A stretch of DNA of 28,909 nucleotides from a virus (lineage: Duplodnaviria; Heunggongvirae; Uroviricota; Caudoviricetes). The notes below the pieces were generated by a model. It saw only the letters and a list, made by a program, of their open reading frames with translations. It did no database searches and had not been told where the DNA came from. Numbering within the stretch: position 1 is the first letter of the stretch; each line of letters begins with the position of its first letter. The position numbers were made by a program, and so were the translations under genes. This document shows positions 1-28,533 of this stretch, piece after piece. The stretch lies in IMG/VR virus record IMGVR_UViG_638341082_000005, positions 1 to 28,909 of that record; one strand, 5' to 3'.

Positions 1-540
1 ATGAATCCGTTTAACGCCATTACTTTTGCTGCATTGTGCGGGCCTCTGGCTTGTCCTGCTGCTATGGCGCAGGAGTTCATCATCCAGCCAGCCCCTGTGA
101 TTGCTAAACCTTTTGAGTACTCTCCTTCTGTTGAGGAATTCTCACGCAAAATGGAAGAGGGTAAGGAGATCTTGCAAAAGTTAACAATTGCAGCAGATGA
201 CTACTATATCTGTTTGATTGATCTTAATAGCCAAGATGCTCGCGAGTTTGTTTCCAAAAACGGGACAGATACGACAGAGGCATGCGAAATGTTCCTGCGT
301 GCTTTTGAAGAAGAAGTGAAGCGTACAATTGAATCGCCTCTGCCTGAATTTATCAGGTCAGAACTGAAGGTTTACTGGCGTCATATTGCTAAAGCTCGCT
401 CATCTGTCACTCGCCTTAACAATTACATAAAGAGCATATTTAAAGAAACTGTTACTTTTAGCGGGCGCGCGGATCTTGCTGGAATTGCAGCACTAGCTAG
501 TCACACATCAAATAAGCTAAAATCGATGCAATTTCACTAA
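1..540 (+). CDS. hypothetical protein, possibly 5'-partial at the window edge; upstream partner of the YafO-like gene
   Basis: 179-aa ORF beginning at base 1 with a hydrophobic N-terminus (MNPFNAITFAALCGPLACPAAMA); no family recognised; stop lies 17 nt before the next ATG, suggesting an operon. Confidence 0.4.
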   Translation: MNPFNAITFAALCGPLACPAAMAQEFIIQPAPVIAKPFEYSPSVEEFSRKMEEGKEILQKLTIAADDYYICLIDLNSQDAREFVSKNGTDTTEACEMFLRAFEEEVKRTIESPLPEFIRSELKVYWRHIAKARSSVTRLNNYIKSIFKETVTFSGRADLAGIAALASHTSNKLKSMQFH

Positions 541-556
541 CCGATAGCGGACGACC

Positions 557-991
557 ATGCATCTAGAAGTCTCTATTAATCCAGAAACTAGAGCTGAATT
601 TTTTGATGAAGTTTTTCTCAAATTCCCGGAGCTAGAGTCTTCTATCATTGATGATTTCAAGAGATACAAAGCAACCGGTGAGCTTCCGCATTATTTCGGT
701 AGGGACGTTGCGTATACTCAGCCTTATGGTGCTTTTCGGGCTGGGTTGATGCATATCCATCTTTGTCTACCGCCAAACAAGTTTCCCGAGAAACTTCCAC
801 AACCGGATAGGGTCTGCAAGAAAGGTGATCCTGATAATGATGCTTGTCTTGTGTATGTCCAAGGTGAGCTTTATGAGAATAAATATTCACTCATTGCTAT
901 TATGTATCCCGATGCACATGAAAAAGCAAGAAAACATGATGTGATGAGCTATCTGGCGCGAATTGCCCAGAATTATAAAGATGAAAACTAA
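557..991 (+). CDS. YafO-family toxin-like protein (ribosome-dependent mRNA interferase family)
   Basis: 144-aa translation shares blocks with E. coli YafO as I recall it: YKxxGxLPxxFGRD, HIHL, LVYxQG, LIAIxxPxxHKxAR; from memory, not a search. Confidence 0.55.
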   Translation: MHLEVSINPETRAEFFDEVFLKFPELESSIIDDFKRYKATGELPHYFGRDVAYTQPYGAFRAGLMHIHLCLPPNKFPEKLPQPDRVCKKGDPDNDACLVYVQGELYENKYSLIAIMYPDAHEKARKHDVMSYLARIAQNYKDEN

Positions 992-1011
992 CCCGCCGAA
1001 GCGGGTTTTTT
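991..1011 (+). terminator. rho-independent terminator between convergent transcription units
   Basis: hairpin ACCCGC-CGAA-GCGGGT followed by TTTTTT; the reverse complement also gives a hairpin plus a short U-run for the minus-strand operon ending at 1018. Confidence 0.6.
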
Positions 1012-1017
1012 GTGAGA

Positions 1018-1290
1018 TTAGTTATTTATTTTCCTATTTGTTCTTACCCTCTCCCATTCAATTCTGCCTTCTTCACGCCGTTTATCTATATATTCAGCAA
1101 GATCCTGAATGTTGATGCAGCGCTTTGCTTTCTGTGATGTACCAACACGATAAGCCGGGATCGGCAACTGGCATGCATTTGCTTTCGCTTCTGCTGTGTT
1201 AGGGCTCATACCGAAATACTTTTGGCATACAGCTGACAGCTCAATGTTTGGGGTATTGAATTCAGCCATCAGTAAAAACAAGGTGTTCAT
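1018..1290 (-). CDS. PrtN-like (pyocin activator family) small DNA-binding protein
   Basis: MNTLFLLMAEF...YFGMSP...LPIPAYRV...IQDLAEYIDKRR matches the remembered PrtN-family pattern; start placed at internal ATG (MNTLF) preceded by GGAGA, rather than the ORF-track start at 1317. Confidence 0.55.
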   Translation of the reverse strand: MNTLFLLMAEFNTPNIELSAVCQKYFGMSPNTAEAKANACQLPIPAYRVGTSQKAKRCINIQDLAEYIDKRREEGRIEWERVRTNRKINN

Positions 1291-1326
1291 AATTTTCTCC
1301 ATCAAAACCGGCTGCACCCGGGAAAA

Positions 1327-1902
1327 TCATAATTCTGTGCTGGTGGCAGGAATTAATTTCTGCCAGATAGCGGAAACATATTTTGCCTGATGACGGGCAT
1401 CAGCCAGGGCGTTGTGCCGTTCGCCATCGAAAGGCATGTCCATTTTGGGGTCGAATCCGATGGAACGCCCAAGCGTAACGATCGTGCGTACATCGTGGTC
1501 ATTCCAGTATGCCCACGGGCAGATTTGTCCTGCTCGCTCATAAGCTCCACGTAAAATTACGTTGTCGAAGGTGGCTCCGTTACCCCAGACTTTTAAATAT
1601 TTCGTATTGTCTGCGTGCCGGTTAATGAAATGATTTAGTTCTGAGAGAGCATCGCTGATCGACAAAGTATCATCAATACAGATTGCAGCTCGTGCTTCAG
1701 GGCTTTGTTTCAACCACCACAGGATGGTATCGCCGTCAGGTGTAGCTCCTAGCTTCATAGCACTGTCCAGGCTAACAACCGTATAGAATTCTTGTCCGAT
1801 GTCTCCGGTTTCTGGAGTGAAGAACACCGCGCCAATGGAAACGATCGGTGCATCCTTATTTTTCCCCATCGTCTCAAGGTCGATCATTAAGTTGTTCATC
1901 AC
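1327..1902 (-). CDS. DnaQ-like (DEDDh) 3'-5' exonuclease
   Basis: Exo I motif IDLETMG near the N-terminus and H-x4-D motif (HNALADARH) near the C-terminus; 4-nt overlap with the upstream gene. Confidence 0.7.
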   Translation of the reverse strand: MMNNLMIDLETMGKNKDAPIVSIGAVFFTPETGDIGQEFYTVVSLDSAMKLGATPDGDTILWWLKQSPEARAAICIDDTLSISDALSELNHFINRHADNTKYLKVWGNGATFDNVILRGAYERAGQICPWAYWNDHDVRTIVTLGRSIGFDPKMDMPFDGERHNALADARHQAKYVSAIWQKLIPATSTEL

Positions 1903-2708
1903 TTCACCTCTTGTGATGGTTTTGCTGCAAAATACTCGATACCTTTATCCCAGATAGATTTTATGGTCGACCACGTGACTGGCACTTTAATTTCAATACG
2001 TCCGCTCCCGTCACAGGTATCGCAATCATCATCGCCAAAGCATTCCAGGCAGCTTATAAACGTAGTTTCTGAAAATTCACCGGATAGCGCCCCCTTAGCG
2101 CCGTTCTCGGCTGTTAGTCTCTTCGGCACCATAACCCAACCATCCGGAGTTACCGGAGAGTTGCCAGACAGTGCGTTCTGCAATCGTTCCAGCTTAACGT
2201 ATTCCTGAACCCTGTTTCCGTCGCACGCCTGAAGCCATTGCACAGCCTTTTGCGCATCAGTGTGAAAGGTACAAGTGCGACCGTCATCAAATTGCATTTC
2301 GTAGAGGTCAGCAACCTGTTTAAACTGCGTTTGTGGCAACTTGTAAGCCTGGCTTGCAGGTACGGCACCATAGAGCATGGCAGCTCGGCAGGCGTTCCAG
2401 CCTTCATCAAAACCGACTATGCCATTATTTAAAGATGGACGAGCATCTGGCACCACCGGCACTGGCTTGGCTATATATAGCGGCTGAACATACCAGCCCT
2501 TTGATAACCAACTGTCAGCAATGTTTTTACTCCTAGTTATTGCCGGAATACCTAAGCCATTGTCTGAATGCAGCCATGCCACCGGATCCTCTTCCAGCGA
2601 TGCCAGAGCAATTTCATAAGCACGGCGCTCAACATTGTCTCGCACGTCCATGCTGCTGATTCGTTCTTTGATTTCTTTAATCAGTTCTTTATCGGTAAAT
2701 GTGGTCAT
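1899..2708 (-). CDS. hypothetical prophage protein with C-terminal CxxC...CxxCxGxG zinc-ribbon-like motif
   Basis: 269-aa ORF; C-terminus CLECFGDDDCDTCDGSGRI; TAATG overlap with the upstream gene indicates translational coupling. Confidence 0.5.
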   Translation of the reverse strand: MTTFTDKELIKEIKERISSMDVRDNVERRAYEIALASLEEDPVAWLHSDNGLGIPAITRSKNIADSWLSKGWYVQPLYIAKPVPVVPDARPSLNNGIVGFDEGWNACRAAMLYGAVPASQAYKLPQTQFKQVADLYEMQFDDGRTCTFHTDAQKAVQWLQACDGNRVQEYVKLERLQNALSGNSPVTPDGWVMVPKRLTAENGAKGALSGEFSETTFISCLECFGDDDCDTCDGSGRIEIKVPVTWSTIKSIWDKGIEYFAAKPSQEVK

Positions 2709-3064
2709 TATGCTCCAGCCTCCGGTGCTTTTGGCATTACTGCCCAGTGAGTGATATTGACGTTTTCAAGGTCCCCGACCTGAAATGTCCACTGCCATTC
2801 TCCGGTTTCTTTTTGCCCCCATGTATACCAGAGAGAACGCCAGCCAATCAGCCAGCCTTCTCCATTAGCATCAAATAACAGAATACTTTCATTCGCTGGC
2901 GGCAGTTCAGCTGACACTGGTATTACTTTGTTTTCCAGTGCTGCACATTTAGCTTCAAGCGCATCAAATTTACGCACCAGGTACTCAGCATTTGTTTCAT
3001 TCACTTTCAGATCTCGTGGTACACATTTCCCGCGAAGAAACCCTTCCATTTCGAAAACATTCAT
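2708..3064 (-). CDS. DUF551-like phage protein
   Basis: Trp-rich C-terminal half ending THWAVMPKAP, typical of DUF551; start placed at second Met, giving an ATGA overlap with the HD gene stop. Confidence 0.5.
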   Translation of the reverse strand: MNVFEMEGFLRGKCVPRDLKVNETNAEYLVRKFDALEAKCAALENKVIPVSAELPPANESILLFDANGEGWLIGWRSLWYTWGQKETGEWQWTFQVGDLENVNITHWAVMPKAPEAGA

Positions 3065-3597
3065 GCGCATTTGCGTAACTCCGATAACTCGTTAAAACGT
3101 TCCATAAACATCCCATAGGCATGGCCTGGCGACAGTGGAATAACTTTGAACATCTCTGTTGCCGGGATACCTTCCAGTACAGGCCAGAAAGAGCCATCAT
3201 CAAGCCCGAGATCGCGGCGTTCGGTTGCCAGCATGATGAGATCGGCATATTTCACGGGCGTGCTCATAACCGGGGGTAACCCGTATTTCTCACGGATTAC
3301 GGCGTCTATTTTTTCTTCCATCCGTTTATAGTCAGGAAGAAGGCGTTTCAGTGGCGCGGGGATGTCCTGGCAATACGCTTCTGTTGCATCATGCATTAAT
3401 GCTTCAAAAGCAAATTCCTGCGGTACCAGCTGGCTGCAAAGCACCGCATGTTGGGCGACGCTGTAGAAATGTGAAAGATGTCCTGCAAAGCGACAGATAT
3501 TTGAAAGAGAAACCGCGATATCGTTAATAACGATGTCGTCTTTATTTATCCTGTCATAATAAAAATGCTTCCCGGAAAAAGTTTTAATAAATGACAT
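3061..3597 (-). CDS. HD-domain phosphohydrolase (YfdR-like 5'-deoxynucleotidase)
   Basis: HD motif in LMHDATEAY plus upstream His (AQHAVL); start at ATG (MSFIKTF) with GGAGA 7 nt upstream; the ORF-track start at 3624 is a GTG without an RBS. Confidence 0.7.
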   Translation of the reverse strand: MSFIKTFSGKHFYYDRINKDDIVINDIAVSLSNICRFAGHLSHFYSVAQHAVLCSQLVPQEFAFEALMHDATEAYCQDIPAPLKRLLPDYKRMEEKIDAVIREKYGLPPVMSTPVKYADLIMLATERRDLGLDDGSFWPVLEGIPATEMFKVIPLSPGHAYGMFMERFNELSELRKCA

Positions 3598-3690
3598 TTT
3601 GTTCTCCACGTATATGCGCTGCACCGCGCTGAATTCTGGTAAAAGGAAGCCCTCACCATCCGGCGATTATTGAGTTAATTACGTTTCCAT

Positions 3691-3712
3691 AAATGCCCCC
3701 GCAGGGGCATTT
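3691..3712 (-). other. intercistronic perfect stem-loop, no U-tract
   Basis: AAATGCCCC-CGCA-GGGGCATTT, 9-bp stem, between the YfdQ-like stop and the HD gene start; probably an mRNA processing or stability element rather than a terminator. Confidence 0.4.
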
Positions 3713-3724
3713 GCAGTAATGAAA

Positions 3725-4549
3725 TCAGGCGGTGAAAGTACCAATAAAGGTTTCTACTTTGCTGTCTTTGAATTTCTCAACAAGCAGATCACGAAATTCG
3801 TTAGCCATTTCTTCCTGCACTGCTTCCAGCTGAATAATGCGCAGAACCAGTACAGGACGATCGCCAGTGATAATGCTGAGGCGTAATTTAAATGGACGTT
3901 CTTTCAGACCTTCAAACGGAACGCATTTAAATTCAAATGCCACTGGCATAATATCTTTGGTCTTCGCTTCGACAGACTCCATCAGGGAGCGTTTGCCGCT
4001 GAAGTCATTATCTTCAAAATCAGCGGTCTGGTTTGCTTCAATCGTGATTTTACGGACAGCCGCAGCCGCTTTTGTTGCCTGAATAGCGTCACCATTAGCA
4101 TCAAAGCCCACAAGGTAGTCGGCCCAGTCTTCAATCCATTCTGCCAGTGACTTCTGGGAGTTACGCTCGCCATTAACAGACAACAGAGCAGAGAACGGTG
4201 CTGTCTTTTTCAGTTTGAGAGTGGCGGTGTTATCTGCGTGACCTGGTTCATCAATAGTACCCAGGTTAATCACACTGACGGCTCGCATATTATCGGCATC
4301 GATAAAGCAGCGGGTGCCTTCATCTGCAAGATCTTTAGAATAACGGGTAAAGTCATCGATGCTGGCAGTGGAAAGCGCACCACGGAAACGGAAGCGATTT
4401 AAATTAAATTTCTCCAGATCATGAATGCGGAAATTCTCAGGCAATGCCACAGCATCGGCACCAATCTTACTGATAATTTCATTAACACCCTGAGCAGAAA
4501 TAAGGGCATGGATTTGATTAATTGCGGTTGCGTCTAAGTTCTGAGACAT
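3725..4549 (-). CDS. YfdQ-family (DUF2303) prophage protein
   Basis: 274-aa translation resembles YfdQ of prophage CPS-53; same relative position (YfdP-Q-R-S) as in that element. Confidence 0.65.
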
Positions 4550-4614
4550 AATAAGTCCTCACTATATAAAGATATTCAGTGATGAGATAAATAATCGGTT
4601 AATTAAGAACGATA

Positions 4615-4977
4615 TTAATGACCTGCTGCGCGGAGTTTTCCGTCAGGTTCACCGGCAAGAGTCAGTAATTGTCCCTGGTCTTCCTGCAGAATAGTCAGGC
4701 GACCACCGCGATTGACATACATCGGCGTTTCGGTGGTGTCTTCTTCGGAAATTTTCCCGCGGTTAGTCGGGCGAACATATGAGAGTTTGTGTTTGATTTT
4801 CACACGGTTCTCATCAAATGGTTCGATTTCCAGGTTGAGCGAGACCTTACCTTTGGTTTTCGTGTTCATCACACCGGAAGCGACTTCACTGAGAACAGCG
4901 CCGATTTTGGTTTCAAATACGCCGCCGTCCAGCTCCCCGATAAATGCCTGCACATCAGTACTGCGTTCGCTAGCCAT
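4615..4977 (-). CDS. hypothetical protein (YfdP-position), first gene of the early-left operon
   Basis: start placed at ATG 4977 (MASERSTDVQ...) with GAGGAG 7 nt upstream; the longer ORF-track start at 5208 runs into a structured region with no RBS. Confidence 0.5.
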   Translation of the reverse strand: MASERSTDVQAFIGELDGGVFETKIGAVLSEVASGVMNTKTKGKVSLNLEIEPFDENRVKIKHKLSYVRPTNRGKISEEDTTETPMYVNRGGRLTILQEDQGQLLTLAGEPDGKLRAAGH

Positions 4978-5027
4978 TTTGCTGCTCCTCATCATATCGA
5001 CCCTGCAAGGTCGGTTGGTTTCTCCAC

Positions 5028-5112
5028 AAAACAGAGAAGAACACCTGCGGTGACTGCCGCCCGGATGGATTGGGTTATGAGCCCGTCGTCCGGTGATGCT
5101 CTTCTCTGTTTT
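5028..5112 (-). promoter_or_regulatory. long hairpin in the 5' UTR of the first early-left gene
   Basis: AAAACAGAGAAGAACA (5028-5043) pairs with TGCTCTTCTCTGTTTT (5097-5112), one mismatch, about 53-nt loop; lies between the tL-like terminator and the RBS at 4985-4990. Confidence 0.4.
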
Positions 5113-5160
5113 GTAAAAAGAGCGGTACCAGCCGGAAGCAAGTGTACAAACTGGTACCGC
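5113..5160 (-). terminator. intrinsic terminator inside the early-left leader (tL-like)
   Basis: 10-bp GC-rich inverted repeat GCGGTACCAG / CTGGTACCGC followed on the minus strand by UCUUUUUACAAAA. Confidence 0.5.
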
Positions 5161-5260
5161 CAAAGCAGTGGCTGTTGTGGTGGGGTTGTCACTCAGGCGT
5201 ATGGTCAACCTGACAATCCGGTGTCCTCAACGGGGAAAGAGTAACCCCGCCATACTTACC

Positions 5261-5299
5261 GCCGCGCCATTTCGCGGATTACCACAACGCTGAGAGCAC
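5261..5299 (-). promoter_or_regulatory. candidate nut-like element (boxA-like + boxB-like hairpin)
   Basis: minus strand reads GTGCTCTCAGCG (boxA-like, cf. lambda CGCTCTTA), then about 11 nt, then hairpin CCGCG-AAATGG-CGCGG; no N-like ORF seen, so speculative. Confidence 0.25.
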
Positions 5300-5571
5300 T
5301 TAGCCAGTTACGGCACCACACTTTGTCGCGGTTCCATAAATGCCCTCATCGTTGCACCCTGGTCTCTTCCCAGGCGTCAAACCGGATCGCCACGCTGGTT
5401 AGGCGTCTTATCAGCATCCTCATTGACTTGCACATTCCGGCTACCTGGTTTGTTTGCCCGAGCAAGGAGTGGATTGTCCCCTTTAACGTCCCCAGACCGC
5501 TAACGACGCATGTGCCATACGCCGTGTTACAACCAAATTTTGTTAGTACCTTGTTTGTAGGTCTGGAGAGA

Positions 5572-5600
5572 AAGATAAAATGAAGTTGCGCATTATGCAA
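5572..5600 (-). promoter_or_regulatory. candidate pL promoter overlapping an operator-like palindrome
   Basis: minus strand TTGCAT (-35), 17 nt, TATCTT (-10); overlaps TTGCGCATTATGCAA (5586-5600); a second palindrome TTGCGAGATAAGCAA at 5609-5623. Confidence 0.4.
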
Positions 5601-5637
5601 GTGTTTTATTGCGAGATAAGCAATTTGGTGGGTAATG

Positions 5638-5657
5638 AAAAGCCACCTTCTGGTGGC
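5638..5657 (-). terminator. terminator downstream of the repressor gene
   Basis: GCCACC-TTCT-GGTGGC hairpin followed by a short U-run on the minus strand, 23 nt past the repressor stop. Confidence 0.45.
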
Positions 5658-5679
5658 TAATTGATGTTGAGGTAGGGGG

Positions 5680-6372
5680 TTAATTGTGTCGCTTAAGGGT
5701 CTGTGACTGACTGATTAAGACCTTTCCAAAGACCATAAACCGGTGTTCGTTTTCGCTGGTAATTCCCCATTCGCGGTAAATCTGATTATCAGAAATTACC
5801 AGCAGTTTATCAGGTATCATTTGCAGTCGTTTGACGTAAATTTTATCATCAAAACCAAATACATATATACCATCCCCATCAAACTGATTGATACTGATAT
5901 CAACGAAGATGAGATCTCCTGGCTCAATGGTTGGACACATACTGTCCCCACGAACGTTGATAACTTTAATGTGATTTGCTGGTCGTCCACCAAACATCGA
6001 TACAGCATTATCAGTTCTGTATTCAATGGCATGAATCACATCAATGACATCACCGCCCTGGATAAGGCCATTTCCCGCACTGGCACTGACATCCAGCATT
6101 TCAATACGGAATACATCCTTCACCTGCGCAACATCCTCACTAATACTGTTTTTACATACAGTATTACTTTTGAGGTCTGAGGTAAAGAGATCAGCAATAT
6201 CAACACCTAAGCTCCTGGCAATATTACTCAGGGCTTGTTCAGTGAATTGTTTCTGCTTACCTGTTTCGAGGCGCGAGATATTCGCCGCATCCACTCCTAT
6301 TGCTTCAGCGAGATCGGCGATTTTCATGTTCTTCGCCTGGCGAAGTTGTCTGACTCGATTTCCTATGTTCAT
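5680..6372 (-). CDS. CI-type prophage repressor (HTH + S24 LexA-like peptidase)
   Basis: N-terminal HTH (MKIADLAEAIGVDAANISRLETGKQ), Ala-Gly cleavage site (SASAGNG), Ser nucleophile in GDSMCPT and Lys in KRLQ; divergent from the Cro-like gene. Confidence 0.85.
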   Translation of the reverse strand: MNIGNRVRQLRQAKNMKIADLAEAIGVDAANISRLETGKQKQFTEQALSNIARSLGVDIADLFTSDLKSNTVCKNSISEDVAQVKDVFRIEMLDVSASAGNGLIQGGDVIDVIHAIEYRTDNAVSMFGGRPANHIKVINVRGDSMCPTIEPGDLIFVDISINQFDGDGIYVFGFDDKIYVKRLQMIPDKLLVISDNQIYREWGITSENEHRFMVFGKVLISQSQTLKRHN

Positions 6373-6469
6373 GCGTTTATTACATTTCTTTATTGCGCGT
6401 TAAGCAAATCAACTTGCGCAAAATATTTGCGTGAAATAATATGCTCATCACGCAATATGTGGAGGTTAT
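6373..6469. promoter_or_regulatory. oR/pR-pRM-like divergent control region
   Basis: operator-like palindrome TTGCGCGTTAAGCAA (6393-6407) of the same form as the two at 5586-5623; candidate pR TTGCGC (6414-6419), 17 nt, TAATAT (6437-6442); inverted repeat TTGCGTGA...TCACGCAA (6427-6455); GGAGG RBS before the Cro-like ATG. Confidence 0.5.
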
Positions 6470-6730
6470 ATGCAATCACCATTACGGAATGTGCGTAAGG
6501 CGCACGGATTTACTTTGCAGCATGTTGCTGCGGGCGTTCAGGTCAATCCAGCGACGCTGAGTCGTATTGAAAGACTGGAACAAATTCCATCTATCGATCT
6601 TGCAGAACGTCTGGCCAATTTTTTTAAGGGTGAAATCAGCGAAATGCAGATTCTTTATCCGGCACGTTTTCAATCTAGCCAAAACCAGAATGGGTTTAAA
6701 CCACAGGAACAGGAGGTAAGCCGTGGGTAA
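6470..6730 (+). CDS. Cro-like HTH (XRE-family) regulator
   Basis: 86-aa protein with HTH (FTLQHVAAGVQVNPATLSRIER), divergent from the repressor, GGAGG RBS. Confidence 0.7.
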   Translation: MQSPLRNVRKAHGFTLQHVAAGVQVNPATLSRIERLEQIPSIDLAERLANFFKGEISEMQILYPARFQSSQNQNGFKPQEQEVSRG

Positions 6731-7274
6731 GCATCATTGGAAAGTGGAAAAACAACCTGAGTGGTACGTGAAAGCTGTCAGAAAAACTATCGCGGCATTG
6801 CCTGGGGGTTACGCTGAAGCTGCTGACTGGCTGGATGTAACAGAGAACGCTTTATTCAACCGCCTTCGTGCAGATGGCGATCAGATTTTCCCGCTGGGAT
6901 GGGCAATGGTTTTACAGCGCGCGGCTGGCACTCACTACATTGCGGATGCTGTCGCACAGTCTGCTGGTGGGGTGTTCGTATCGCTTCCTGAAATTGAGGA
7001 AGTAGAGAACGCCGATATAAACCAGCGCCTGCTGGAAGTCATCGAACAGATCGGGAATTACTCAAAGCAGATTCGTTCGGCAATCGAAGATGGGGTCGTG
7101 GAGCCACACGAGCAGACAGCAATTAATGATGAGTTGTATCTGTCAATTTCGAAGCTCCAGGAGCATGCAGCACTGGTCTACAAAATCTTCTGCGCTCCAG
7201 AAAAGAGTGACGCCCGCGAGTGTGCAGCTCCGGGCGTCGTGGCGTTTTGTGTCTGTGGAGAAACTAACGCATGA
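6723..7274 (+). CDS. CII-like regulator (CP76-type), putative
   Basis: GTG start after AGGAGG; position immediately after Cro; resembles CP76-type CII proteins from memory. Confidence 0.45.
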   Translation: MGKHHWKVEKQPEWYVKAVRKTIAALPGGYAEAADWLDVTENALFNRLRADGDQIFPLGWAMVLQRAAGTHYIADAVAQSAGGVFVSLPEIEEVENADINQRLLEVIEQIGNYSKQIRSAIEDGVVEPHEQTAINDELYLSISKLQEHAALVYKIFCAPEKSDARECAAPGVVAFCVCGETNA

Positions 7275-7875
7275 ACAGTTTAACGGCAAATAACCGTTTG
7301 TCGCAACAGCTGGTGGTCAGTGTCGCTGAACACCTGTTGTTACGGTATGAATGCAGATTACCAAATCACCTGGCTGTAAGTAACCACAGAGAACTTTACC
7401 TGACTGTGGGGGGCGAGTTGTGCAGGAACTTAACCGCTGGTTTCGTGACGGAAGAGGGCTTTATGTCCATGTTATTCGTTGGGAGCCAGAAACACAGCGC
7501 GTTATCTATCTTCGCAAAGACTACCCGCATGAGTGCTTTAGTCCTTTGTGGAAATTCAGGCATGATTTTGTTGAGTGTGAAGGACCACCAGCACATTGAT
7601 TCTGCCATTCCGGGACGTTACACTGTTCAGGCACCTTATAAAGCGGGTGCCGGGCGTGGAAACCCGGAATTCACCAAAGCGCACAACCGCGCTCTTGCGG
7701 TTTTTTTGTGTAATGAGCAGCATTACGCCCAAATTATGGTGGGGCGTGCAGGGCCAACTTCGGTTGGGCCGGGTTCTTTGGTGACCGGTATTTCCACCCC
7801 TGTACGTCTCACCACCAATAAGGTCGTGGAAAGCCTTGGTGGTGAGTTATTAAAAATCACCAAAGAGGCTGCCAT
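7271..7875 (+). other. ambiguous segment: frame is open but no recognisable protein; contains terminator-like and tetraloop hairpins
   Basis: frame 2 is open from ATG 7271 into the Rha gene; an alternative 59-codon frame (GTG 7420 to TGA 7599) looks more protein-like; AACCGC-GCTCTT-GCGGTT + TTTTTTT at 7685-7709; UUCG-loop hairpin near 7751-7770; 11-bp inverted repeat CTCACCACCAA/TTGGTGGTGAG at 7808-7846. Confidence 0.3.
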
Positions 7876-8422
7876 CATGGCTACGATCCCAACCCTCACT
7901 CAACCTGAAATTGCCATCGTTGATGGTCAGGCTGTTACTTCATCCCTGGCTGTTGCCAACTTCTTCTCCAAACGTCATGACGATGTACTGAAAAAGATCC
8001 GCACGCTTGAATGCTCTGCATCATTCACTGCCCGCAATTTTTCGGTGAGTGATTACACCGATTGCACAGGCCGCAAACTACCTTGCTATCAAATAACCCG
8101 CGACGGCTTTGCGTTTCTTGCTATGGGGTTCACGGGTAAACGTGCTGCCCAGTTCAAAGAGGCATACATCAATGCCTTTAACCAGATGGAGAAACAGCTT
8201 TCAAATCCCTCTGTACTGAGCGACGTTGCACATAACGCCAGCGTTCTCTATTCCTACATTTCATCAATTCATCAGGTCTGGCTGCAGCAGCTTTATCCTA
8301 TGTTGGCAAAAGCCGAATCTCCGCTGGCTGTTAGCTTGTATGACTATATTAATGATGCTTCGGCACTGGCCTGCCTCATAAATTTGTCGCTGAACCCTTC
8401 AGAGGTAAGGGGGCGCAAATGA
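7876..8422 (+). CDS. Rha-family phage regulatory protein (N-terminus may extend to 7271)
   Basis: Rha domain begins at MATIPTLTQPEIAIVDGQAVTSSLAVANFFSKRHDDVLKKIR; AGAGG RBS upstream of ATG 7876; Rha domains normally sit at the extreme N-terminus. Confidence 0.55.
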
Positions 8423-8643
8423 TCCGGAATATTTTCAAACGGTTTACCAATCAGACTTTCCGTTGTCCTCGTCCTGGTCAGTGGTACACCACGCCTGCAG
8501 GGCATGTTCTACGTGTCAGCCTGGTTGACCGTGAATGTCAGAAGGTGATTTGTGAACCGCTGGGCCGTAATTACCGCATCAGTATGCCGCTTATAGCCTT
8601 TTGCTCCGGAAAAAACATGAAGCATCTCGGAGGTGCAGCATGA
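8419..8643 (+). CDS. small hypothetical protein
   Basis: 74-aa ORF with ATGA overlaps at both ends (Rha stop and replication-gene start); no family recognised. Confidence 0.35.
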   Translation: MIRNIFKRFTNQTFRCPRPGQWYTTPAGHVLRVSLVDRECQKVICEPLGRNYRISMPLIAFCSGKNMKHLGGAA

Positions 8644-9458
8644 GTATGGAGCTGATGGTTAAAGCGATGAAAATTCGAGTGGGTAATCCATTGCGAAAAC
8701 TGGTTCTGATCAAGCTGGCTGATAACGCCAGCGATCAGGGTGAGTGCTGGCCCAGCTACCAGCATATTGCTGACCAGTGCGAGATTAGCAAACGTTCTGT
8801 GATGAATCATATTGCGGCTCTTTGTGATTCCGGACTGGTAAAAAAAGTCACCCGGAAAGGTGAAAAAGGTAACTCAAGTAATATCTATCTCCTTCATCTT
8901 GATGGTGCAGGAGATTCACTAGGGGGTAGTGCAAATAATTCACTATCTGGTGCAGCAAATTCACCAGGTAGTGCAGGAGTTGCACCAGGGGGTGGTGCAG
9001 GAGATTCACCCAGAACCAGTCACTCTTTTGAACCAGTCAAAGAACCAGTCAATGAACCAATAGCTGTTGGTGCATCTGCTGATGAGTCTGTGCGAGTTCG
9101 TTCAAACCGACCGGAATACTCTCCGGAGTTTGAGCAGGCATGGCTGGCATACCCCAAACGTGCTGGTGGCAATTCAAAATCTGCAGCCTTCAAAGCCTGG
9201 AAAGCCCGTTTGAATGAGGGGGTAAACCCCGAAACCATGCTGGAAGGTGTGAAACGCTATGCGGGCTGGGTATCTGCGATGGGTAACAGCGGCACACAAT
9301 TTGTGAAACAGGCTGTCACGTTCTTTGGTCCGGATCGTCATTTCGAAGAATCCTGGGAAGTTCCTGCGGTATCTGCAGCCAGACGTGAGGATCCGTACTT
9401 CAAAGCCAGTTACGACAACGTGGACTACAGCCAGATCCCGGCAGGATTCAGGGGGTGA
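8640..9458 (+). CDS. putative replication initiation protein (N-terminal HTH, iteron-encoding linker)
   Basis: N-terminal winged-HTH-like segment (LRKLVLIKLADNASDQGECWPSYQHIADQCEISKRSVMNHI); Gly/Ser/Ala-rich linker encoded by tandem DNA repeats, as in lambda O; start at ATG 8640 after GGAGG. Confidence 0.5.
   Translation: MSMELMVKAMKIRVGNPLRKLVLIKLADNASDQGECWPSYQHIADQCEISKRSVMNHIAALCDSGLVKKVTRKGEKGNSSNIYLLHLDGAGDSLGGSANNSLSGAANSPGSAGVAPGGGAGDSPRTSHSFEPVKEPVNEPIAVGASADESVRVRSNRPEYSPEFEQAWLAYPKRAGGNSKSAAFKAWKARLNEGVNPETMLEGVKRYAGWVSAMGNSGTQFVKQAVTFFGPDRHFEESWEVPAVSAARREDPYFKASYDNVDYSQIPAGFRG
8905..9060. repeat. iteron-like direct repeats (candidate replication origin) inside the replication gene
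   Basis: five copies of a 15-bp motif GTGCAG(G/C)A(G/A)(A/T)T(T/G)CAC starting 8905, 8929, 8950, 8971, 8995 at 21-24 bp spacing, then 2.5 copies of GAACCAGTCAA(A/T) at 9020-9058. Confidence 0.55.
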
Positions 9459-9460
9459 TC

Positions 9461-9949
9461 ATGAGTCTTTTGAATGAAGTTCAGAAATTCATTGAAGCCC
9501 ATCCGGGGTGTACTTCCGGAGACATTGCGGATGCTTTTGCAGGTTACTCACGGCAGCGCGTTCTGCAGTCAGCAAGCAAGTTACGTCAGAGTGGGCGTGT
9601 GGCTCACCGTTGTGAAGGAGATACACGCAGACATTTCCCGCGCCTGACTGAGAGAGCGCAGGAGCCGGAACCACAACCAGTTCGTGAAACCAGACCTGTG
9701 CGCAATTTCTATGTCGGCACTAACGATCCCCGGGTGATTTTGTGCCTGACCCGCCAGGCTGAAGAACTGGAGTCAAGGGGCTTATACCGTCGTGCTGCAA
9801 CCGTGTGGATGGCGGCATTCCGTGAAAGCCACTCCCAGCCAGAACGAAACAATTTTCTGACGCGTCGTGAGCGGTGCTTACGGAAAAGCAGCAAGCGCGC
9901 TGCATCGGGTGAAGAGTGGTATCTGTCAGGGAATTACGTGGGGGCTTAA
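9461..9949 (+). CDS. PerC-like transcriptional regulator, putative
   Basis: C-terminal segment LTRQAEELESRGLYRRAATVWMAAFRESHSQPERNNFLTRRERCL resembles the PerC family; start at ATG 9461 after GGGGGTGA. Confidence 0.4.
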   Translation: MSLLNEVQKFIEAHPGCTSGDIADAFAGYSRQRVLQSASKLRQSGRVAHRCEGDTRRHFPRLTERAQEPEPQPVRETRPVRNFYVGTNDPRVILCLTRQAEELESRGLYRRAATVWMAAFRESHSQPERNNFLTRRERCLRKSSKRAASGEEWYLSGNYVGA

Positions 9950-10602
9950 TGAGTAATAAATATTGCCAGGCGCTGGTGGAACTGCGGAACAAACCAGCCC
10001 ATGAACTGAAGGAAGTGGGCGATCAGTGGCGCACGCCGGACAACATTTTCTGGGGAATTAACACCCTGTTTGGCCCGTTTGTTCTGGATCTGTTCACTGA
10101 CGGTGATAACGCCAAATGTGCTGCGTATTACACGGCGGAAGACAACGCGCTGGCGCATGACTGGTCAGAACGTCTTGCGGAGCTTAAAGGGGCTGCCTTT
10201 GGTAATCCCCCATACAGCCGCGCCAGTCAGCATGAGGGGCAATACATCACCGGCATGCGTTACATCATGAAACATGCCAGTGCCATGCGTGATAAGGGTG
10301 GGCGCTATGTTTTCCTGATCAAAGCTGCCACCAGCGAAGTGTGGTGGCCGGAAGATGCAGACCATATTGCTTTTATTCGCGGGCGTATTGGTTTTGAACT
10401 GCCTGCCTGGTTTATCCCGAAGGATGAGAAGCAGGTGCCGACAGGCGCTTTCTTCGCTGGTGCTATTGCTGTTTTCGACAAGACCTGGAAGGGACCGGCA
10501 ATCAGCTACATCGGGCGCGATGAACTTGAGGCATGTGGTGAGGCGTTTTTGGCGCAGGTTCGCCAGCAGGCAGAAAAACTTGTCAGGGAGATGGCGGCAT
10601 GA
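9949..10602 (+). CDS. phage-type DNA N6-adenine methyltransferase (orphan, no cognate nuclease seen)
   Basis: catalytic NPPY motif (GNPPYS) and overall resemblance to the phage Dam family; start ATG overlaps the upstream stop (TAATG). Confidence 0.75.
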   Translation: MSNKYCQALVELRNKPAHELKEVGDQWRTPDNIFWGINTLFGPFVLDLFTDGDNAKCAAYYTAEDNALAHDWSERLAELKGAAFGNPPYSRASQHEGQYITGMRYIMKHASAMRDKGGRYVFLIKAATSEVWWPEDADHIAFIRGRIGFELPAWFIPKDEKQVPTGAFFAGAIAVFDKTWKGPAISYIGRDELEACGEAFLAQVRQQAEKLVREMAA

Positions 10603-10925
10603 CGACGTTAACTCAATGCCAGCAGCAGGTGCTGGATATGCTGATTTCTTACCAGCAAGAGCGTGGCTTTCCGCCAACCAATCAGGAGGTGGCAACCATG
10701 CTGGGATACCGTTCAGTGAATGCAGCGGTGGAGCATCTTCGCGCACTGGAGAAAAAAGGCGTCATCACGATAAAGCGTGGCGTGGCCCGGGGGATAACGC
10801 TTCATACCGCAGTGAAGGACGACGACAGCGAAGCGGTCGGTATCATCCGCGCACTGCTTGCCGGTGAGGAGAACGCCAGGCTGCGTGCAGCCCACTGGTT
10901 ACATGAGAGGGGCCTGAAAGTATGA
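10599..10925 (+). CDS. LexA-DNA-binding-domain-like winged-helix protein
   Basis: 108 aa; MTTLTQCQQQVLDMLISYQQERGFPPTNQEVATMLGYRSVNAAVEHLRALEKKGVI resembles the LexA N-terminal domain with no peptidase domain; ATGA overlap with dam. Confidence 0.5.
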   Translation: MTTLTQCQQQVLDMLISYQQERGFPPTNQEVATMLGYRSVNAAVEHLRALEKKGVITIKRGVARGITLHTAVKDDDSEAVGIIRALLAGEENARLRAAHWLHERGLKV

Positions 10926-11311
10926 AGTTGATCCTGCCTTTCCCGCCCAGTGTGAACACGTACTGGCGACACCCCAACAAAGGGGCATTTGCTGGTAAGA
11001 GCCTGATAAGCGAGGCGGGGCGAAAATTTCAGAGCGCGGCGTGCGCAGCAATAGTTGAGCAGTTACGTCGTCTGCCGAAACCAACGTCGGCACCTGCTTC
11101 AGTGGAGATCGTGTTGTTTCCTCCGGATAACCGGATCCGCGATCTGGACAACTATAACAAGGCGCTGTTTGACGCCCTGACCCACGCGGGTGTGTGGGAA
11201 GACGACAGACAGGTGAAAAGAATGCTGGTGGAGTGGGGACCGGTTATCCCGAAAGGGAAGGTCGAGATCACTATCAGTAAGTATGAGAAACCGGCGGGTG
11301 CAGCCGCCTGA
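10922..11311 (+). CDS. rusA: RusA-family Holliday junction resolvase
   Basis: LPFPPSVNTYW and DNRIRDLDNYNKALFDALTHAGVWEDDRQV match the RusA signature including the catalytic Asp cluster. Confidence 0.85.
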   Translation: MKLILPFPPSVNTYWRHPNKGAFAGKSLISEAGRKFQSAACAAIVEQLRRLPKPTSAPASVEIVLFPPDNRIRDLDNYNKALFDALTHAGVWEDDRQVKRMLVEWGPVIPKGKVEITISKYEKPAGAAA

Positions 11312-11330
11312 TTAAGAGGAGAAACGAAGT

Positions 11331-12395
11331 ATGAATAATCTGATGGTCATTGATGGTATTGAAGTTCGTCGTGATGCTTATGGGCGTTACAGCCTGAACG
11401 ATCTGCATCGCGCAGCAGTAGCATCTGGTGCAAATGCCAGAACCAAGGAGCCAGGAAAGTTTCTTTCCAGCCAACAAACTGTTGAGCTTGTTCATGAATT
11501 GACCAACACCCAGAATTTGGGTGTTGACCCGGTGAGTGTGATTCATGGGGGAAATGAACGGGGAACGTATGTCTGCAAGGAACTGGTGTATGCCTATGCA
11601 ATGTGGATCAGCCCGTCATTCCATCTGAAGGTGATCCGTACTTTCGACATGGTAACCAGCGCACCGGAAAAATTATCCGGACAGGCTGCTGACAAGATGC
11701 AGGCTGGTGTGATTCTGCTGGACTTTATGCGCCGGGAATTAAACCTGTCTAACTCTTCAGTGCTTGGTGCCTGTCAGAAACTCCAGGAGGCTGTTGGCTT
11801 ACCGAATCTGGCACCGCGCTATGCCATTGATGCTCCTGCTGACGCGCCTGATGGCTCAAGTCGTCCTACGCTGTCGCTGAGTGCACTGCTGAAACAGTAT
11901 GGTAACCGCGTTGCTTCATCCGCGATATCGCAGTCGGCGTCACAGGTTGCCCGTGAGACAAAGGTACGCCGGAAACTGGTAAAGGAAAGGGCCAGGCTGA
12001 AAAGGGCCACGGTCAAAAATCCGCAGGCCAGAATCAAAGTTAACCGGGGGGATTTGCCCGTAATCAAGCTGGGTAATGCGCGGGTTGTCCTGTCCCGCCG
12101 CAGGCGTCGTAAAAAAGGGCAGCGTTCATCCCTGAAAGGTGGCGGCAGCGTGCTTGTGGTGGGTAACCGTCGTATTCCCGGCGCGTTTATTCAGCAACTG
12201 AAAAATGGCCGGTGGCATGTCATGCAGCGTGTGGCCGGGAAAAACCGTTACCCCATTGATGTGGTGAAAATCCCGATGGCGGTGCCGCTGACCACGGCGT
12301 TTAAACAGAATATTGAGCGGATACGGCGTGAGCGTCTTCCGAAAGAGCTGGGCTATGCGCTGCAGCATCAACTGAGAATGGTAATAAAGCGATGA
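11331..12395 (+). CDS. chimeric ORF: KilA-N domain fused in frame to the C-terminal ~160 aa of lambda head completion protein Z
   Basis: N-terminus has the KilA-N domain (MVIDGIEVRRDAYGRYSLNDLHRAA...YAMWISPSFHLKVIRTFD); from about residue 195 (NRVASSAISQSASQVARETKVRR... to ...LRMVIKR) it matches lambda gpZ and is followed by U and V. Confidence 0.7.
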   Translation: MNNLMVIDGIEVRRDAYGRYSLNDLHRAAVASGANARTKEPGKFLSSQQTVELVHELTNTQNLGVDPVSVIHGGNERGTYVCKELVYAYAMWISPSFHLKVIRTFDMVTSAPEKLSGQAADKMQAGVILLDFMRRELNLSNSSVLGACQKLQEAVGLPNLAPRYAIDAPADAPDGSSRPTLSLSALLKQYGNRVASSAISQSASQVARETKVRRKLVKERARLKRATVKNPQARIKVNRGDLPVIKLGNARVVLSRRRRRKKGQRSSLKGGGSVLVVGNRRIPGAFIQQLKNGRWHVMQRVAGKNRYPIDVVKIPMAVPLTTAFKQNIERIRRERLPKELGYALQHQLRMVIKR

Positions 12396-21598: not shown

Positions 21599-22198
21599 AT
21601 GCGTAAATTATGTGCTGTTATTCTGTCCGCAGTAGTCTGGCTGGTTGCCGCTGGTACGCCAGCGAGCGCAGCAGAGCATCAGTCCACACTAAGCGCCGGG
21701 TATCTTCAGGCCCATACTGATATGCCAGGCAGTGATGACCTGAAGGGCATTAACGTGAAATACCGTTATGAATTTACGGACACGCTGGGGCTGGTGACGT
21801 CATTCAGTTATGCCAATGCCAAAGATGAGCAAAAAACGCATTACAGCGATACCCGCTGGCATGAAGATTCAGTGCGTAACCGCTGGTTCAGCATGATGGC
21901 GGGGCCATCTGTACGCGTGAATGAATGGTTCAGTGCTTATGCGATGGCAGGTGTGGCTTACAGCCGTGTTTCGACGTTCTCCGGGGATTATCTCCGCGTA
22001 ACTGACAACAAGGGGAAAACGCACGATGTGCTGACCGGAAGTGATGACGATCGCCACAGCAACACGTCTCTGGCGTGGGGAGCTGGCGTGCAGTTTAACC
22101 CGACCGAATCCGTGGCCATTGATATTGCTTATGAAGGCTCCGGCAGTGGCGACTGGCGCACTGACGGTTTCATCGTGGGTGTCGGTTATAAGTTCTGA
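21599..22198 (+). CDS. lom: Lom-like Ail/OmpX-family outer membrane protein
   Basis: signal peptide (MRKLCAVILSAVVWLVAAGTPASA), beta-barrel-like alternating pattern, C-terminal GVGYKF; position after J as in lambda. Confidence 0.85.
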   Translation: MRKLCAVILSAVVWLVAAGTPASAAEHQSTLSAGYLQAHTDMPGSDDLKGINVKYRYEFTDTLGLVTSFSYANAKDEQKTHYSDTRWHEDSVRNRWFSMMAGPSVRVNEWFSAYAMAGVAYSRVSTFSGDYLRVTDNKGKTHDVLTGSDDDRHSNTSLAWGAGVQFNPTESVAIDIAYEGSGSGDWRTDGFIVGVGYKF

Positions 22199-26309: not shown

Positions 26310-27407
26310 TCAAGAGGTCTTATTTCTGCTCTTTTGGAGCTCTTCAAAACGATTATGTAAAGATTTCGGATACAGTTCGGTATATACCTGCCATAGCACG
26401 TTTAATGAACGATGCCCTGTAACTTGGGCGACTTCCTCAATACTAAAACCAGCCTCAAATAAGCGACTTGCCCCTTCTCTACGCAAATCATGGTATCGCA
26501 GATCTTTAATACCTAATTTGCTTCTTACCCTCTGAAATCCCGCAGTAACAGAAGTGCTGTTATATGGAAAAATGAATTCCGATTTTTGGGGCTGTCGTTG
26601 GACGATATCCCAGGCTTCCCCAAGCAAGGCTACTTTCATGTGGTTGCCTTCCTTTTTGCGTGGATCTTTCCTGTCTCTTACGAGTATAGATTTTTGTTCC
26701 TGGTCGAGATCTTCCCATCGTAACCGGCATACTTCTCCGATTCGCATACAGGACCACACAGAAAATTTGAGGATATCAACGAACGGAATTTTTGAGCATT
26801 TATGTGTAGATCGTTGTTGAAGACCTTCAATGAGCATGTCCAGTTCATCAGATGCCGGTCTACGATTACGACGGTTTGATTTACCAATCAAACCAAGTTT
26901 AAGTAGATATGGACGAGCACTTTTCGCCGGGTTTGATGTGTAATTAATTCCGTATACAGGTTTGGCCGCATCCAGAACACTGCCAAGATAACTAACATCG
27001 TGGCTGACTGTTGCTGGACCTGCACCAGCGTTGTTTCTTAGCCTACAATGTTCAATTACGTCATTTTCTGTCAGTTCGGATAGTTTGATCGCGGAGATGT
27101 CACTATCCATAAGCAGTTCCAGCACATATCTTTTAGTACGACCTGCTTTACCTCCGGCATTTGGGTCATTTAAATATTTGTGTAGTAAGTCACGGACTGT
27201 AAGTCCGTCAACTGCATTTGATGATGGAATGCCATATAGATCTAATTCCATCACTTTCTGTGTACCCCATGTTTTGGCATGGGCATGTTTAGGGAATGTT
27301 TTGCTTTCCCTGTAAGTGATAACACCTTTTTCTTTGATAATCACATTACAGCGATAGCGTGGTGTGCCATCGGATTTTAGTCGTTTCTCTATGTTATAGT
27401 ACGCCAT
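26310..27407 (-). CDS. int: tyrosine site-specific integrase, dusA-associated
   Basis: 365 aa with tyrosine-recombinase C-terminal catalytic region (RIGEVCRLRWEDLD, HDLRREGASRLFEAG, Tyr near the C-terminus); adjacent to and divergent from dusA. Confidence 0.9.
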   Translation of the reverse strand: MAYYNIEKRLKSDGTPRYRCNVIIKEKGVITYRESKTFPKHAHAKTWGTQKVMELDLYGIPSSNAVDGLTVRDLLHKYLNDPNAGGKAGRTKRYVLELLMDSDISAIKLSELTENDVIEHCRLRNNAGAGPATVSHDVSYLGSVLDAAKPVYGINYTSNPAKSARPYLLKLGLIGKSNRRNRRPASDELDMLIEGLQQRSTHKCSKIPFVDILKFSVWSCMRIGEVCRLRWEDLDQEQKSILVRDRKDPRKKEGNHMKVALLGEAWDIVQRQPQKSEFIFPYNSTSVTAGFQRVRSKLGIKDLRYHDLRREGASRLFEAGFSIEEVAQVTGHRSLNVLWQVYTELYPKSLHNRFEELQKSRNKTS

Positions 27408-27495: not shown

Positions 27496-28533
27496 ATGCA
27501 CGATAATCCTGAAACACAGAAAACTAATCAAACCAGCGCGATGCCTGAGAAAACTGGCGCTTACGGGAGTTCTCGGTTTAGCATTGCTCCTATGCTCGAC
27601 TGGACGGACAGACATTGCCGCTATTTCTTGCGTCTGCTTTCCCGCAATACGTTGCTGTATACCGAAATGGTGACCACAGGGGCGATTATTCACGGTAAAG
27701 GTGATTACCTGGCGTACAGTGAAGAAGAACATCCGGTAGCGTTGCAACTCGGCGGTAGCGATCCGGCGGCGCTGGCACAGTGTGCGAAGCTGGCAGAAGC
27801 GCGTGGATATGATGAGATCAACCTGAATGTCGGCTGCCCGTCTGACCGGGTGCAGAACGGCATGTTTGGTGCGTGTCTGATGGGTAATGCGCAGCTGGTT
27901 GCCGACTGCGTGAAAGCGATGCGCGATGTGGTGTCGATTCCGGTGACGGTGAAAACGCGTATTGGCATCGACGACCAGGACAGCTATGAATTTCTCTGCG
28001 ATTTCATCAACACCGTTTCCGGCAAAGGCGAGTGTGAGATGTTCATCATCCATGCACGTAAAGCCTGGCTTTCGGGGTTAAGTCCGAAAGAAAACCGTGA
28101 GATCCCGCCGCTCGATTATCCGCGTGTGTATCAACTGAAGCGTGACTTTCCGCATCTGACAATGTCGATTAACGGTGGTATCAAGTCGCTGGAAGAGGCC
28201 AAAGCACACCTGCAACATATGGATGGCGTGATGGTCGGGCGCGAGGCGTATCAGAATCCGGGTATTCTGGCGGCGGTAGACCGGGAGATCTTTGGTTCCT
28301 CGGATATCGATGCCGATCCGGTGGCGGTAGTGCGCGCCATGTATCCGTACATTGAGCGTGAACTCAGCCAGGGGACGTATCTCGGTCATATTACCCGGCA
28401 TATGTTGGGCTTGTTCCAGGGTATTCCTGGCGCGCGGCAGTGGCGGCGTTATTTAAGTGAAAATGCCCATAAAGCGGGTGCAGACATTAATGTGCTGGAA
28501 CACGCGCTCAAACTGGTGGCGGATAAGCGTTAA
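27496..28533 (+). CDS. dusA: tRNA-dihydrouridine(20/20a) synthase DusA
   Basis: 345-aa translation with the Dus fold ([17 protein letters not shown]..., NLNVGCP..., catalytic region) matching E. coli DusA; N-terminal ~35 residues look variant. Confidence 0.9.

Follow-up and report, generated by a model that had tools for sequence, protein, structure and literature searches.

A YafO-family toxin gene obligately paired with the gene of a predicted exported protein in a mobile phage cassette

The window analysed here, which is the whole 28,909-nt stretch of the viral record IMGVR_UViG_638341082_000005 (Caudoviricetes), opens with a two-gene cassette. Gene 1 (positions 1–540) encodes a protein of 179 amino acids (aa), referred to below as the partner. 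Gene 2 (557–991) encodes a 144-aa protein of the YafO family, with a RelE/ParE fold and a putative activity as mRNA endoribonuclease, referred to below as the toxin. Both genes, like the other cassette features for which no strand is given, lie on the plus strand. The two genes constitute an obligate and mobile pair. Both are present in 118 of 118 loci, the order is always partner then toxin, and the partner begins with a predicted Sec signal peptide.

The pairing was examined from both sides. When loci are anchored on the partner, a YafO-like gene lies 3–20 nt downstream in 51 of 51 cases, representing 26 distinct pairs. When viral loci with upstream DNA are anchored on the toxin, all 67 have an open reading frame (ORF) of the partner family ending between −1 and 35 nt before the toxin gene. 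The association is kept with toxins of only ∼50% identity in Photorhabdus, Yersinia, Gilliamella, Providencia and one metagenomic phage, and also in the most distant partner subfamily, found in Enterobacter. Relative to the window copy, toxins are 50–81% identical and partners 20–75%, so that the toxin evolves more slowly; a partner that evolves faster than the toxin is likewise a feature of toxin–antitoxin (TA) pairs. In E. coli, the pair occurs in 49 of 5,426 genomes (0.9%), with both genes intact in all 49 and identity of at least 99.6%. Among the loci examined, an intact toxin always comes with an intact partner. The one decayed copy, in a decaying prophage of Photorhabdus antumapuensis (L139, 751–1098) combines an N-terminally truncated toxin of 115 aa with an intact partner of 186 aa.

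The second salient property of the pair is the N-terminus of the partner. Residues 1–23 (positions 1–69) are predicted to form a Sec signal peptide, MNPFNAITFAALCGPLACPAAMA/QE (the slash marks the predicted cleavage site), as judged from the hydrophobic run, the cleavage-site pattern, a scoring heuristic and a helix in the AlphaFold2 (AF2) model. In E. coli-type partners this segment is an uncharged hydrophobic run ending in QPAAMA/QE, with Pro at −5, A-x-A at −3/−1 and then Q/E, and the predicted mature chain has an uncharged or acidic start. In distant partners the signal sequences are unrelated to this one, of textbook type and with an n-region that contains Lys or Arg; examples are MKTTLSICAAALSMALSSPNVLA/RE, MNLSLRSCLAVVLFGGVLSVPSFS/A, MARTKIPFSKVAMLSLALSVSTSCA/QL and MANHSVINSAILAALFAFSSQA/DE. 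The heuristic, a crude one with 50 toxins and 47 window ORFs as controls, is positive for 92 of 100 distinct partners, for none of the 50 toxins and for four of the 47 window ORFs, among them the partner and Lom, a true protein of the outer membrane. Charge distribution predicts an N-in, C-out orientation, and in the AF2 model a helix spanning residues 6–24 is set apart from the rest of the protein by a linker with a low predicted local distance difference test score (pLDDT). As read from the sequences, what is conserved across the partner family is signal-peptide character and no sequence motif. Thus, an earlier note on the window, which had remarked on a signal-like N-terminus, is supported by the cleavage pattern and by the family-wide score, and export of the partner appears likely.

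The signal segment of the E. coli-type subfamily is also the most constrained part of the partner. It has the lowest value of non-synonymous codon differences (0.15, versus 0.24–0.66 in the rest of the partner and 0.27 in the toxin), and in the same segment 32% of codon pairs differ synonymously. Therefore, the constraint acts at the protein level, and conservation of the N-terminal 24 codons by a DNA-level element, such as an att site or an operator, is excluded. A toxin-binding role for this segment is disfavoured, since its sequence is unrelated in the cassettes of Providencia, Photorhabdus and Gilliamella, the toxins of which are 53–66% identical.

Downstream of the signal peptide, the predicted mature partner (positions 70–537) comprises a Pro-rich disordered stretch (aa 24–43) and a five-helix bundle (aa 44–174). 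Its conserved motifs are CExxLRxFE, in which E96 is invariant, AKAR...RLN, and a C-terminal helix with FxSxxDxxxLxxLAxxTTxK...FH. Fold searches with the model return generic helical bundles only, none of them informative, and no DNA-binding domain of the ribbon–helix–helix (RHH), helix–turn–helix (HTH), AbrB or Phd type is detected in the partner by Pfam, NCBIfam or fold search. In one partner variant (P0001, representing 136 member sequences), residues 38–47 are read out of frame, giving PLSTLLLLRNS in place of PFEYSPSVEEF. Here two mutually compensating frameshifts fall within the disordered linker, and this segment therefore seems to tolerate scrambling.

No family in Pfam, NCBIfam or PADLOC matches the partner. 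It does not resemble YafN (97 aa, of Phd/YefM type), Pfam returns no Phd/YefM match, and comparison with PDB sequences gives matches at chance level only. This agrees with the earlier view that the upstream gene is neither YafN-like nor a member of a recognized antitoxin family. The sole match is PHROG 8416, annotated as ‘unknown function’. The family consists of 22 clusters at 90% identity in a collection of 5.8 billion proteins and of 23 representative clusters in an exhaustive hidden Markov model (HMM) scan of 1.84 billion proteins; a broader profile extends it to 39 clusters. Every named member is labelled ‘hypothetical protein’. The sources are mainly Enterobacterales, and include Escherichia, Phytobacter, Enterobacter, Klebsiella, Pantoea, Serratia, Yersinia, Providencia, Photorhabdus and Gilliamella. 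The protein is acidic, with an isoelectric point of 5–6. In the GenBank record of phage PhiR40_1 (PV340560), gene 1 is called ‘YafM antitoxin’, a name for which no basis was found in the literature, and the two RefSeq proteins of the pair are not mentioned in any paper found by the literature search.

Gene 1, identified by ORF calling, is complete. Its first ATG is position 1 of the window, so the start was checked in the full prophage copy of E. coli E138 (L001). There, an in-frame stop codon precedes the ATG by 39 nt, with a GAGG Shine–Dalgarno sequence 6–7 nt 5′ of the ATG. Because this copy closes the frame upstream and the GAGG is properly spaced, gene 1 is no fragment, and the idea that it is the 3′ end of a longer gene is ruled out. 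The leftward extension proposed in the earlier note thereby confirms positions 1–540 as the complete gene, and it also uncovers a candidate promoter. The same note had named two findings that would speak against it, the absence of a YafO match for gene 2 and gene 1 being the tail of a longer, unrelated gene that does not neutralize the toxin; the match is there and the gene is whole. An internal start at Met22, from which a cytoplasmic isoform could arise, was set aside: it has no upstream Shine–Dalgarno sequence, and Leu replaces Met22 in some family members.

The product of gene 2 matches the Pfam family YafO_toxin (PF13957) with 76.5 bits over residues 35–141 (cut-off 25). Its score against the NCBIfam YafO equivalog PRK09885 is 75.8 bits, under the cut-off of 153. 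By these sequence scores it is a member of the YafO family and no ortholog or equivalog of YafO from E. coli K-12, with which it shares 36% identity across 117 aa and the blocks FGRD, HIHL, LVYxQG and PxxHxxAR. Its own motif blocks are YKATGELP, FGRD, HIHL, LVYVQG and LIAIMYPDAHEKAR, and residues invariant across the clade include H66, H68, R85 and H121. The AF2 model (pLDDT 95) has a RelE/HigB (BECR) fold. Profile score, motif blocks and model all bear out the assignment to the YafO family made earlier from the motifs. The toxin is a bare, single RelE-fold domain of 144 aa without a regulatory module. K-12 YafO is reportedly toxic by itself, a result attributed to Zhang et al. in 2009 (cited in PMC11980606). 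No solved structure of a YafO toxin was found, and the ribosome dependence of YafO is disputed (PMC11980606). In one E. coli-type copy (L014, 557–1015), the toxin stop codon is lost, which leads to a product of 152 aa.

The two genes are separated by a 16-nt spacer (541–556; 17 nt in the earlier note) with a weak Shine–Dalgarno sequence, GCGGA; the corresponding distance is −1 to 35 nt in homologous cassettes. From this arrangement, translational coupling of gene 1 and gene 2 is probable. An intrinsic terminator (990–1013), recognized by folding and by comparison, consists of a hairpin at 990–1007 that overlaps the toxin stop codon and a T-run at 1008–1013. On the plus strand it reads AACCCGC-CGAA-GCGGGTT followed by TTTTTTGT. 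The hairpin is kept in several genera with compensatory changes in the stem (cccgcc/ggcggg, ccccgt/acgggg and cccac/gtggg). The proposal of a bidirectional terminator holds for the hairpin, which folds better than shuffled sequences on both strands (z = −3.0 on the plus strand and −4.4 on the minus strand), and less well for the T-run, which is good on the plus strand and poorer on the minus strand. The candidate promoter, sigma-70-like TTGACC-17-TAGACT, lies outside the window, 54–82 nt upstream of the cassette in L001 (5919–5947), and is a consensus match only. The pair had also been described as AT-rich. Its GC content is indeed lower (∼42%) than that of the adjacent early genes in the next 2 kb (45–52%), by a gap that is only modest.

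Comparison of unrelated contexts by blastn delimits what is transferred. Homology starts 10–45 nt upstream of the partner ATG, at the conserved TTGAGGTTGnnATG ribosome-binding site (RBS), and ends just past the terminator; genes upstream of the cassette differ from context to context. On this sequence comparison, the transferred unit is the RBS, gene 1, gene 2 and the terminator. As homology between contexts is limited to this interval, no third conserved component (small ORF, small RNA or repeat array) is present, and Rfam and tandem-repeat (TRF) scans of positions 1–1400 are negative. A self-contained, terminated unit found at differing sites across phages is, as far as sequence tells, a cassette that behaves as a phage moron, in line with the earlier proposal of a separately terminated unit and possible moron.

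The insertion sites are diverse, and the carriers are mainly temperate phages of Enterobacterales and Orbales. In the window prophage the cassette occupies the extreme end adjoining attL. Elsewhere it is found between tail genes of myovirus-like and lambda-like prophages, between tail fibre and lysis genes, and beside Arc-like regulators. At one locus (L050) it comes right behind the gene of a cI-type S24 repressor, which is a lysogen-expressed location. In a prophage of Yersinia mollaretii (L044, 828–2938), the cassette comes right after a ParD–ParE pair and an orphan gene for a 63-aa ParD-like protein, with the tail tube gene on one side and the tape-measure gene on the other; this neighbourhood, likewise a lysogen-expressed location, is a small TA/defence islet within the tail module. 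In a 216-kb metagenome contig (L137, 3001–3980), a distant pair of 172 aa and 150 aa with an 8-nt spacer is located between a GntP-type permease gene and marC/asd/glgB. Since this setting is purely chromosomal, the module is not confined to phages.

The element from which the window derives is a lambdoid prophage inserted in the 5′ end of dusA, beside zur. At its far end lie a tyrosine integrase gene (26310–27407, minus strand) and a restored full-length dusA of 345 aa (27496–28533, plus strand), and a displaced 5′ fragment of dusA is present at the opposite prophage end, beside zur (L001, 5737–5800). Together, the full-length dusA next to the integrase and the displaced fragment indicate that the prophage integrates in dusA and brings along a 5′ end to replace the one it displaces. 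Between attL and the cassette, ∼110–130 nt upstream of window position 1, L001 contains a perfect tandem direct repeat, TCTATTCATA in two copies (5874–5893), perhaps an arm-type site for the integrase, or else an operator.

Over the first 11.9 kb, the window (1–11909) is 99.98% identical to phage PhiR40_1 (PV340560, 222–12130), and PhiR55_1 is equally close; both are viable phages and have been used experimentally (PMC13190303). The window prophage has lost the Q antiterminator, lysis, terminase, portal and head genes (∼13 kb in PhiR40_1), and the deletion is marked by an ORF in which KilA-N is fused to minor tail protein Z (11331–12395, plus strand). It is thus defective yet keeps an intact cassette. 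Convergent with the toxin gene is a gene for a PrtN/pyocin-activator-type protein, classed as excisionase in PHROGs (1018–1317, minus strand), followed by one for a Rv2179c-like 3′–5′ exonuclease (1327–1902, minus strand). In the excised phage, the cassette and attP would lie between int and the xis-like gene, so that early transcription towards the left could reach int only by traversing the cassette in antisense. In the tail region is found a lysogenic-conversion gene for an outer-membrane protein of the Ail/Lom family (21599–22198, plus strand; PF06316, 423 bits).

The closest known system is the type II TA module YafN–YafO of K-12, encoded in dinB-yafN-yafO-yafP. It shares with the cassette a PF13957 toxin, the same motif blocks, the order partner then toxin and a short spacer. 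The differences concern the partner and the setting: the K-12 antitoxin is the 97-aa YafN of Phd/YefM type in the SOS dinB operon, whereas here the partner is an all-α protein of 179 aa with a predicted signal peptide on a phage-borne moron. More generally, RelE/ParE toxins of the BECR group (such as HigB2, HigB1, YafQ and YoeB) are associated with small cytoplasmic antitoxins having RHH, HTH or Phd domains, none of which is detectable here. The cassette, which would work like a TA of the YafNO/RelBE type, has the adjacent, co-oriented, tightly spaced and co-occurring genes of a type II module, but no DNA-binding antitoxin. The envelope-linked ToxM/ToxR, with a toxin of the RelE superfamily (Gerdes 2025, PMC11980606), is comparable to what is proposed below. 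In ToxM, transmembrane (TM) and periplasmic domains are part of the toxin, which is paired with a small RHH/HTH antitoxin of the cytoplasm, whereas here the toxin is soluble and the partner is predicted to be exported. A survey that gives for YafO just an ‘A/T’ gene order presents these TM-fused toxins as possibly the first type II complex associated with a membrane (PMC11980606). Toxin–antitoxin–chaperone (TAC) systems (HigB–HigA–SecB-like chaperone) likewise tie a RelE-fold TA pair to the Sec pathway. They rely on three genes with a dedicated chaperone and a cytoplasmic antitoxin, in contrast to two genes and a partner that itself carries the predicted export signal. A toxin–immunity pair, the other option of the earlier note, is disfavoured: the toxin has neither a delivery or secretion module nor a signal peptide (none of 50), and its neighbours are phage genes, with no T6SS, CDI or Rhs genes among them.

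A TA specialist would not expect such a pairing or such a signal peptide, and both are solid; what the cassette does and by what mechanism we infer entirely, and this holds for toxicity, neutralization, actual export and the biological role of the cassette. The best reading, a tentative one, is that of a TA-like exclusion or retention moron controlled by an exported protein. In such a system, the gene 2 product would be a cytoplasmic YafO-family endoribonuclease of RelE fold that arrests translation. The partner would neutralize it as a cytoplasmic precursor, before export. The cleavable Sec signal peptide would then direct the partner to the periplasm, so that export, instead of or besides proteolysis, would drain the pool of free partner, and continued synthesis of the pair would be needed to keep the toxin silent. 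When this synthesis stops, by host shut-off upon phage infection or by loss of the element, the toxin would be released. The arrangement would be a secretion-based analogue of a proteolytically labile antitoxin. It is tempting to propose a partner that acts as precursor, because this reconciles restraint of the toxin with the predicted export. On balance, the partner probably does restrain the toxin, given the type II TA architecture, the toxic K-12 relative and the fact that the partner is the sole conserved candidate for a controller.

Several points weigh on the other side. At steady state, a periplasmic protein cannot sequester a cytoplasmic ribonuclease (RNase), and no precedent for a precursor-acting antitoxin was found in the literature. 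The lack of a DNA-binding domain in the partner leaves nothing that points to autoregulation. In the E. coli subfamily, the n-region of the signal peptide is not positively charged, having no basic residue, and the unusually strong sequence conservation of this peptide hints at a further role. Finally, neither protein matches a defence-system model of PADLOC-DB 2.0.

Held more loosely, as a possibility, is the idea of an export-coupled TA system. Here a Sec-secreted partner would govern a RelE-fold RNase, and export would set the cytoplasmic lifetime of the antitoxin or, alternatively, export failure would signal an attack on the envelope or by a phage.

Spackle of phage T4 and Sim of phage P1 are small, signal-peptide-bearing, phage-encoded periplasmic proteins that act in superinfection exclusion and are made in the lysogen or the infected cell. 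By analogy, the two genes could serve separate functions in the lysogen, with a periplasmic exclusion protein acting in the manner of Spackle or Sim, and a stand-alone abortive-infection RNase held in check by low expression or by a trigger; the partner would then be no antitoxin. The family-wide signal peptide, which puts partner and RNase in different compartments, is in favour of this explanation, as are the location of the cassette at phage moron sites typical of exclusion genes and the absence of an antitoxin-like domain or fold in the partner. What makes it rather unlikely is the linkage itself: order and coupling are fixed, and the genes are never apart in the 118 loci, even at 50% toxin identity, although independent functions should occasionally separate. 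The toxin, moreover, has no regulatory module of its own and its K-12 relative is toxic alone. The partner has no likeness to phage superinfection-exclusion proteins in PDB sequence or fold searches, and no protein of the Spackle or Sim type is known to be obligately coupled to a RelE-fold RNase.

Distinctly unlikely is an ordinary type II antitoxin of a new family, cytoplasmic or associated with the inner face of the membrane, the N-terminus of which would be a structural, tethering or toxin-binding element. Gene order, coupling, acidity and faster evolution of the partner are classic features of such modules, and an n-region without Lys or Arg combined with the strongest purifying selection is atypical for a plain signal peptide. 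This mechanism is nevertheless disfavoured, because a Sec-type signal peptide throughout the family predicts a periplasmic partner. Distant members carry unrelated textbook signal peptides, such as MKTTLSICAAALSMALSSPNVLA/RE and MARTKIPFSKVAMLSLALSVSTSCA/QL, next to toxins that are still 50–65% identical, the charge distribution predicts N-in, C-out, and the N-terminal helix of the AF2 model is separate from the bundle. A very improbable alternative is a sensor of export failure, in which a toxin inert by itself is switched on by cytoplasmic build-up of the precursor when Sec export fails or the proton-motive force is lost, as might happen under phage attack; it would account for both signal peptide and strict linkage and has conceptual precedents in SecM–secA and in TAC systems (PMC4257090; PMC11980606), but nothing indicates that RelE-fold toxins need an activator, all conserved YafO residues are kept, and the idea is purely inferential.

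Whatever its mechanism, the cassette stands for a YafO subfamily of its own, in which YafN is never the partner and the toxin is tied throughout to an unannotated protein with a predicted export signal; YafO itself is among the least understood toxins of the RelE superfamily. The literature search found no RelE-type toxin with a partner described as exported. It is plausible that this compact and widely transferred moron represents an undescribed exclusion or abortive-infection system. If the partner controls the toxin, the pair would exemplify a new regulation of a TA toxin, through secretion, and would follow a single earlier proposal of an envelope-linked RelE-type module. If control is coupled to export, there would be a direct link between the condition of the Sec pathway and the arrest of translation.

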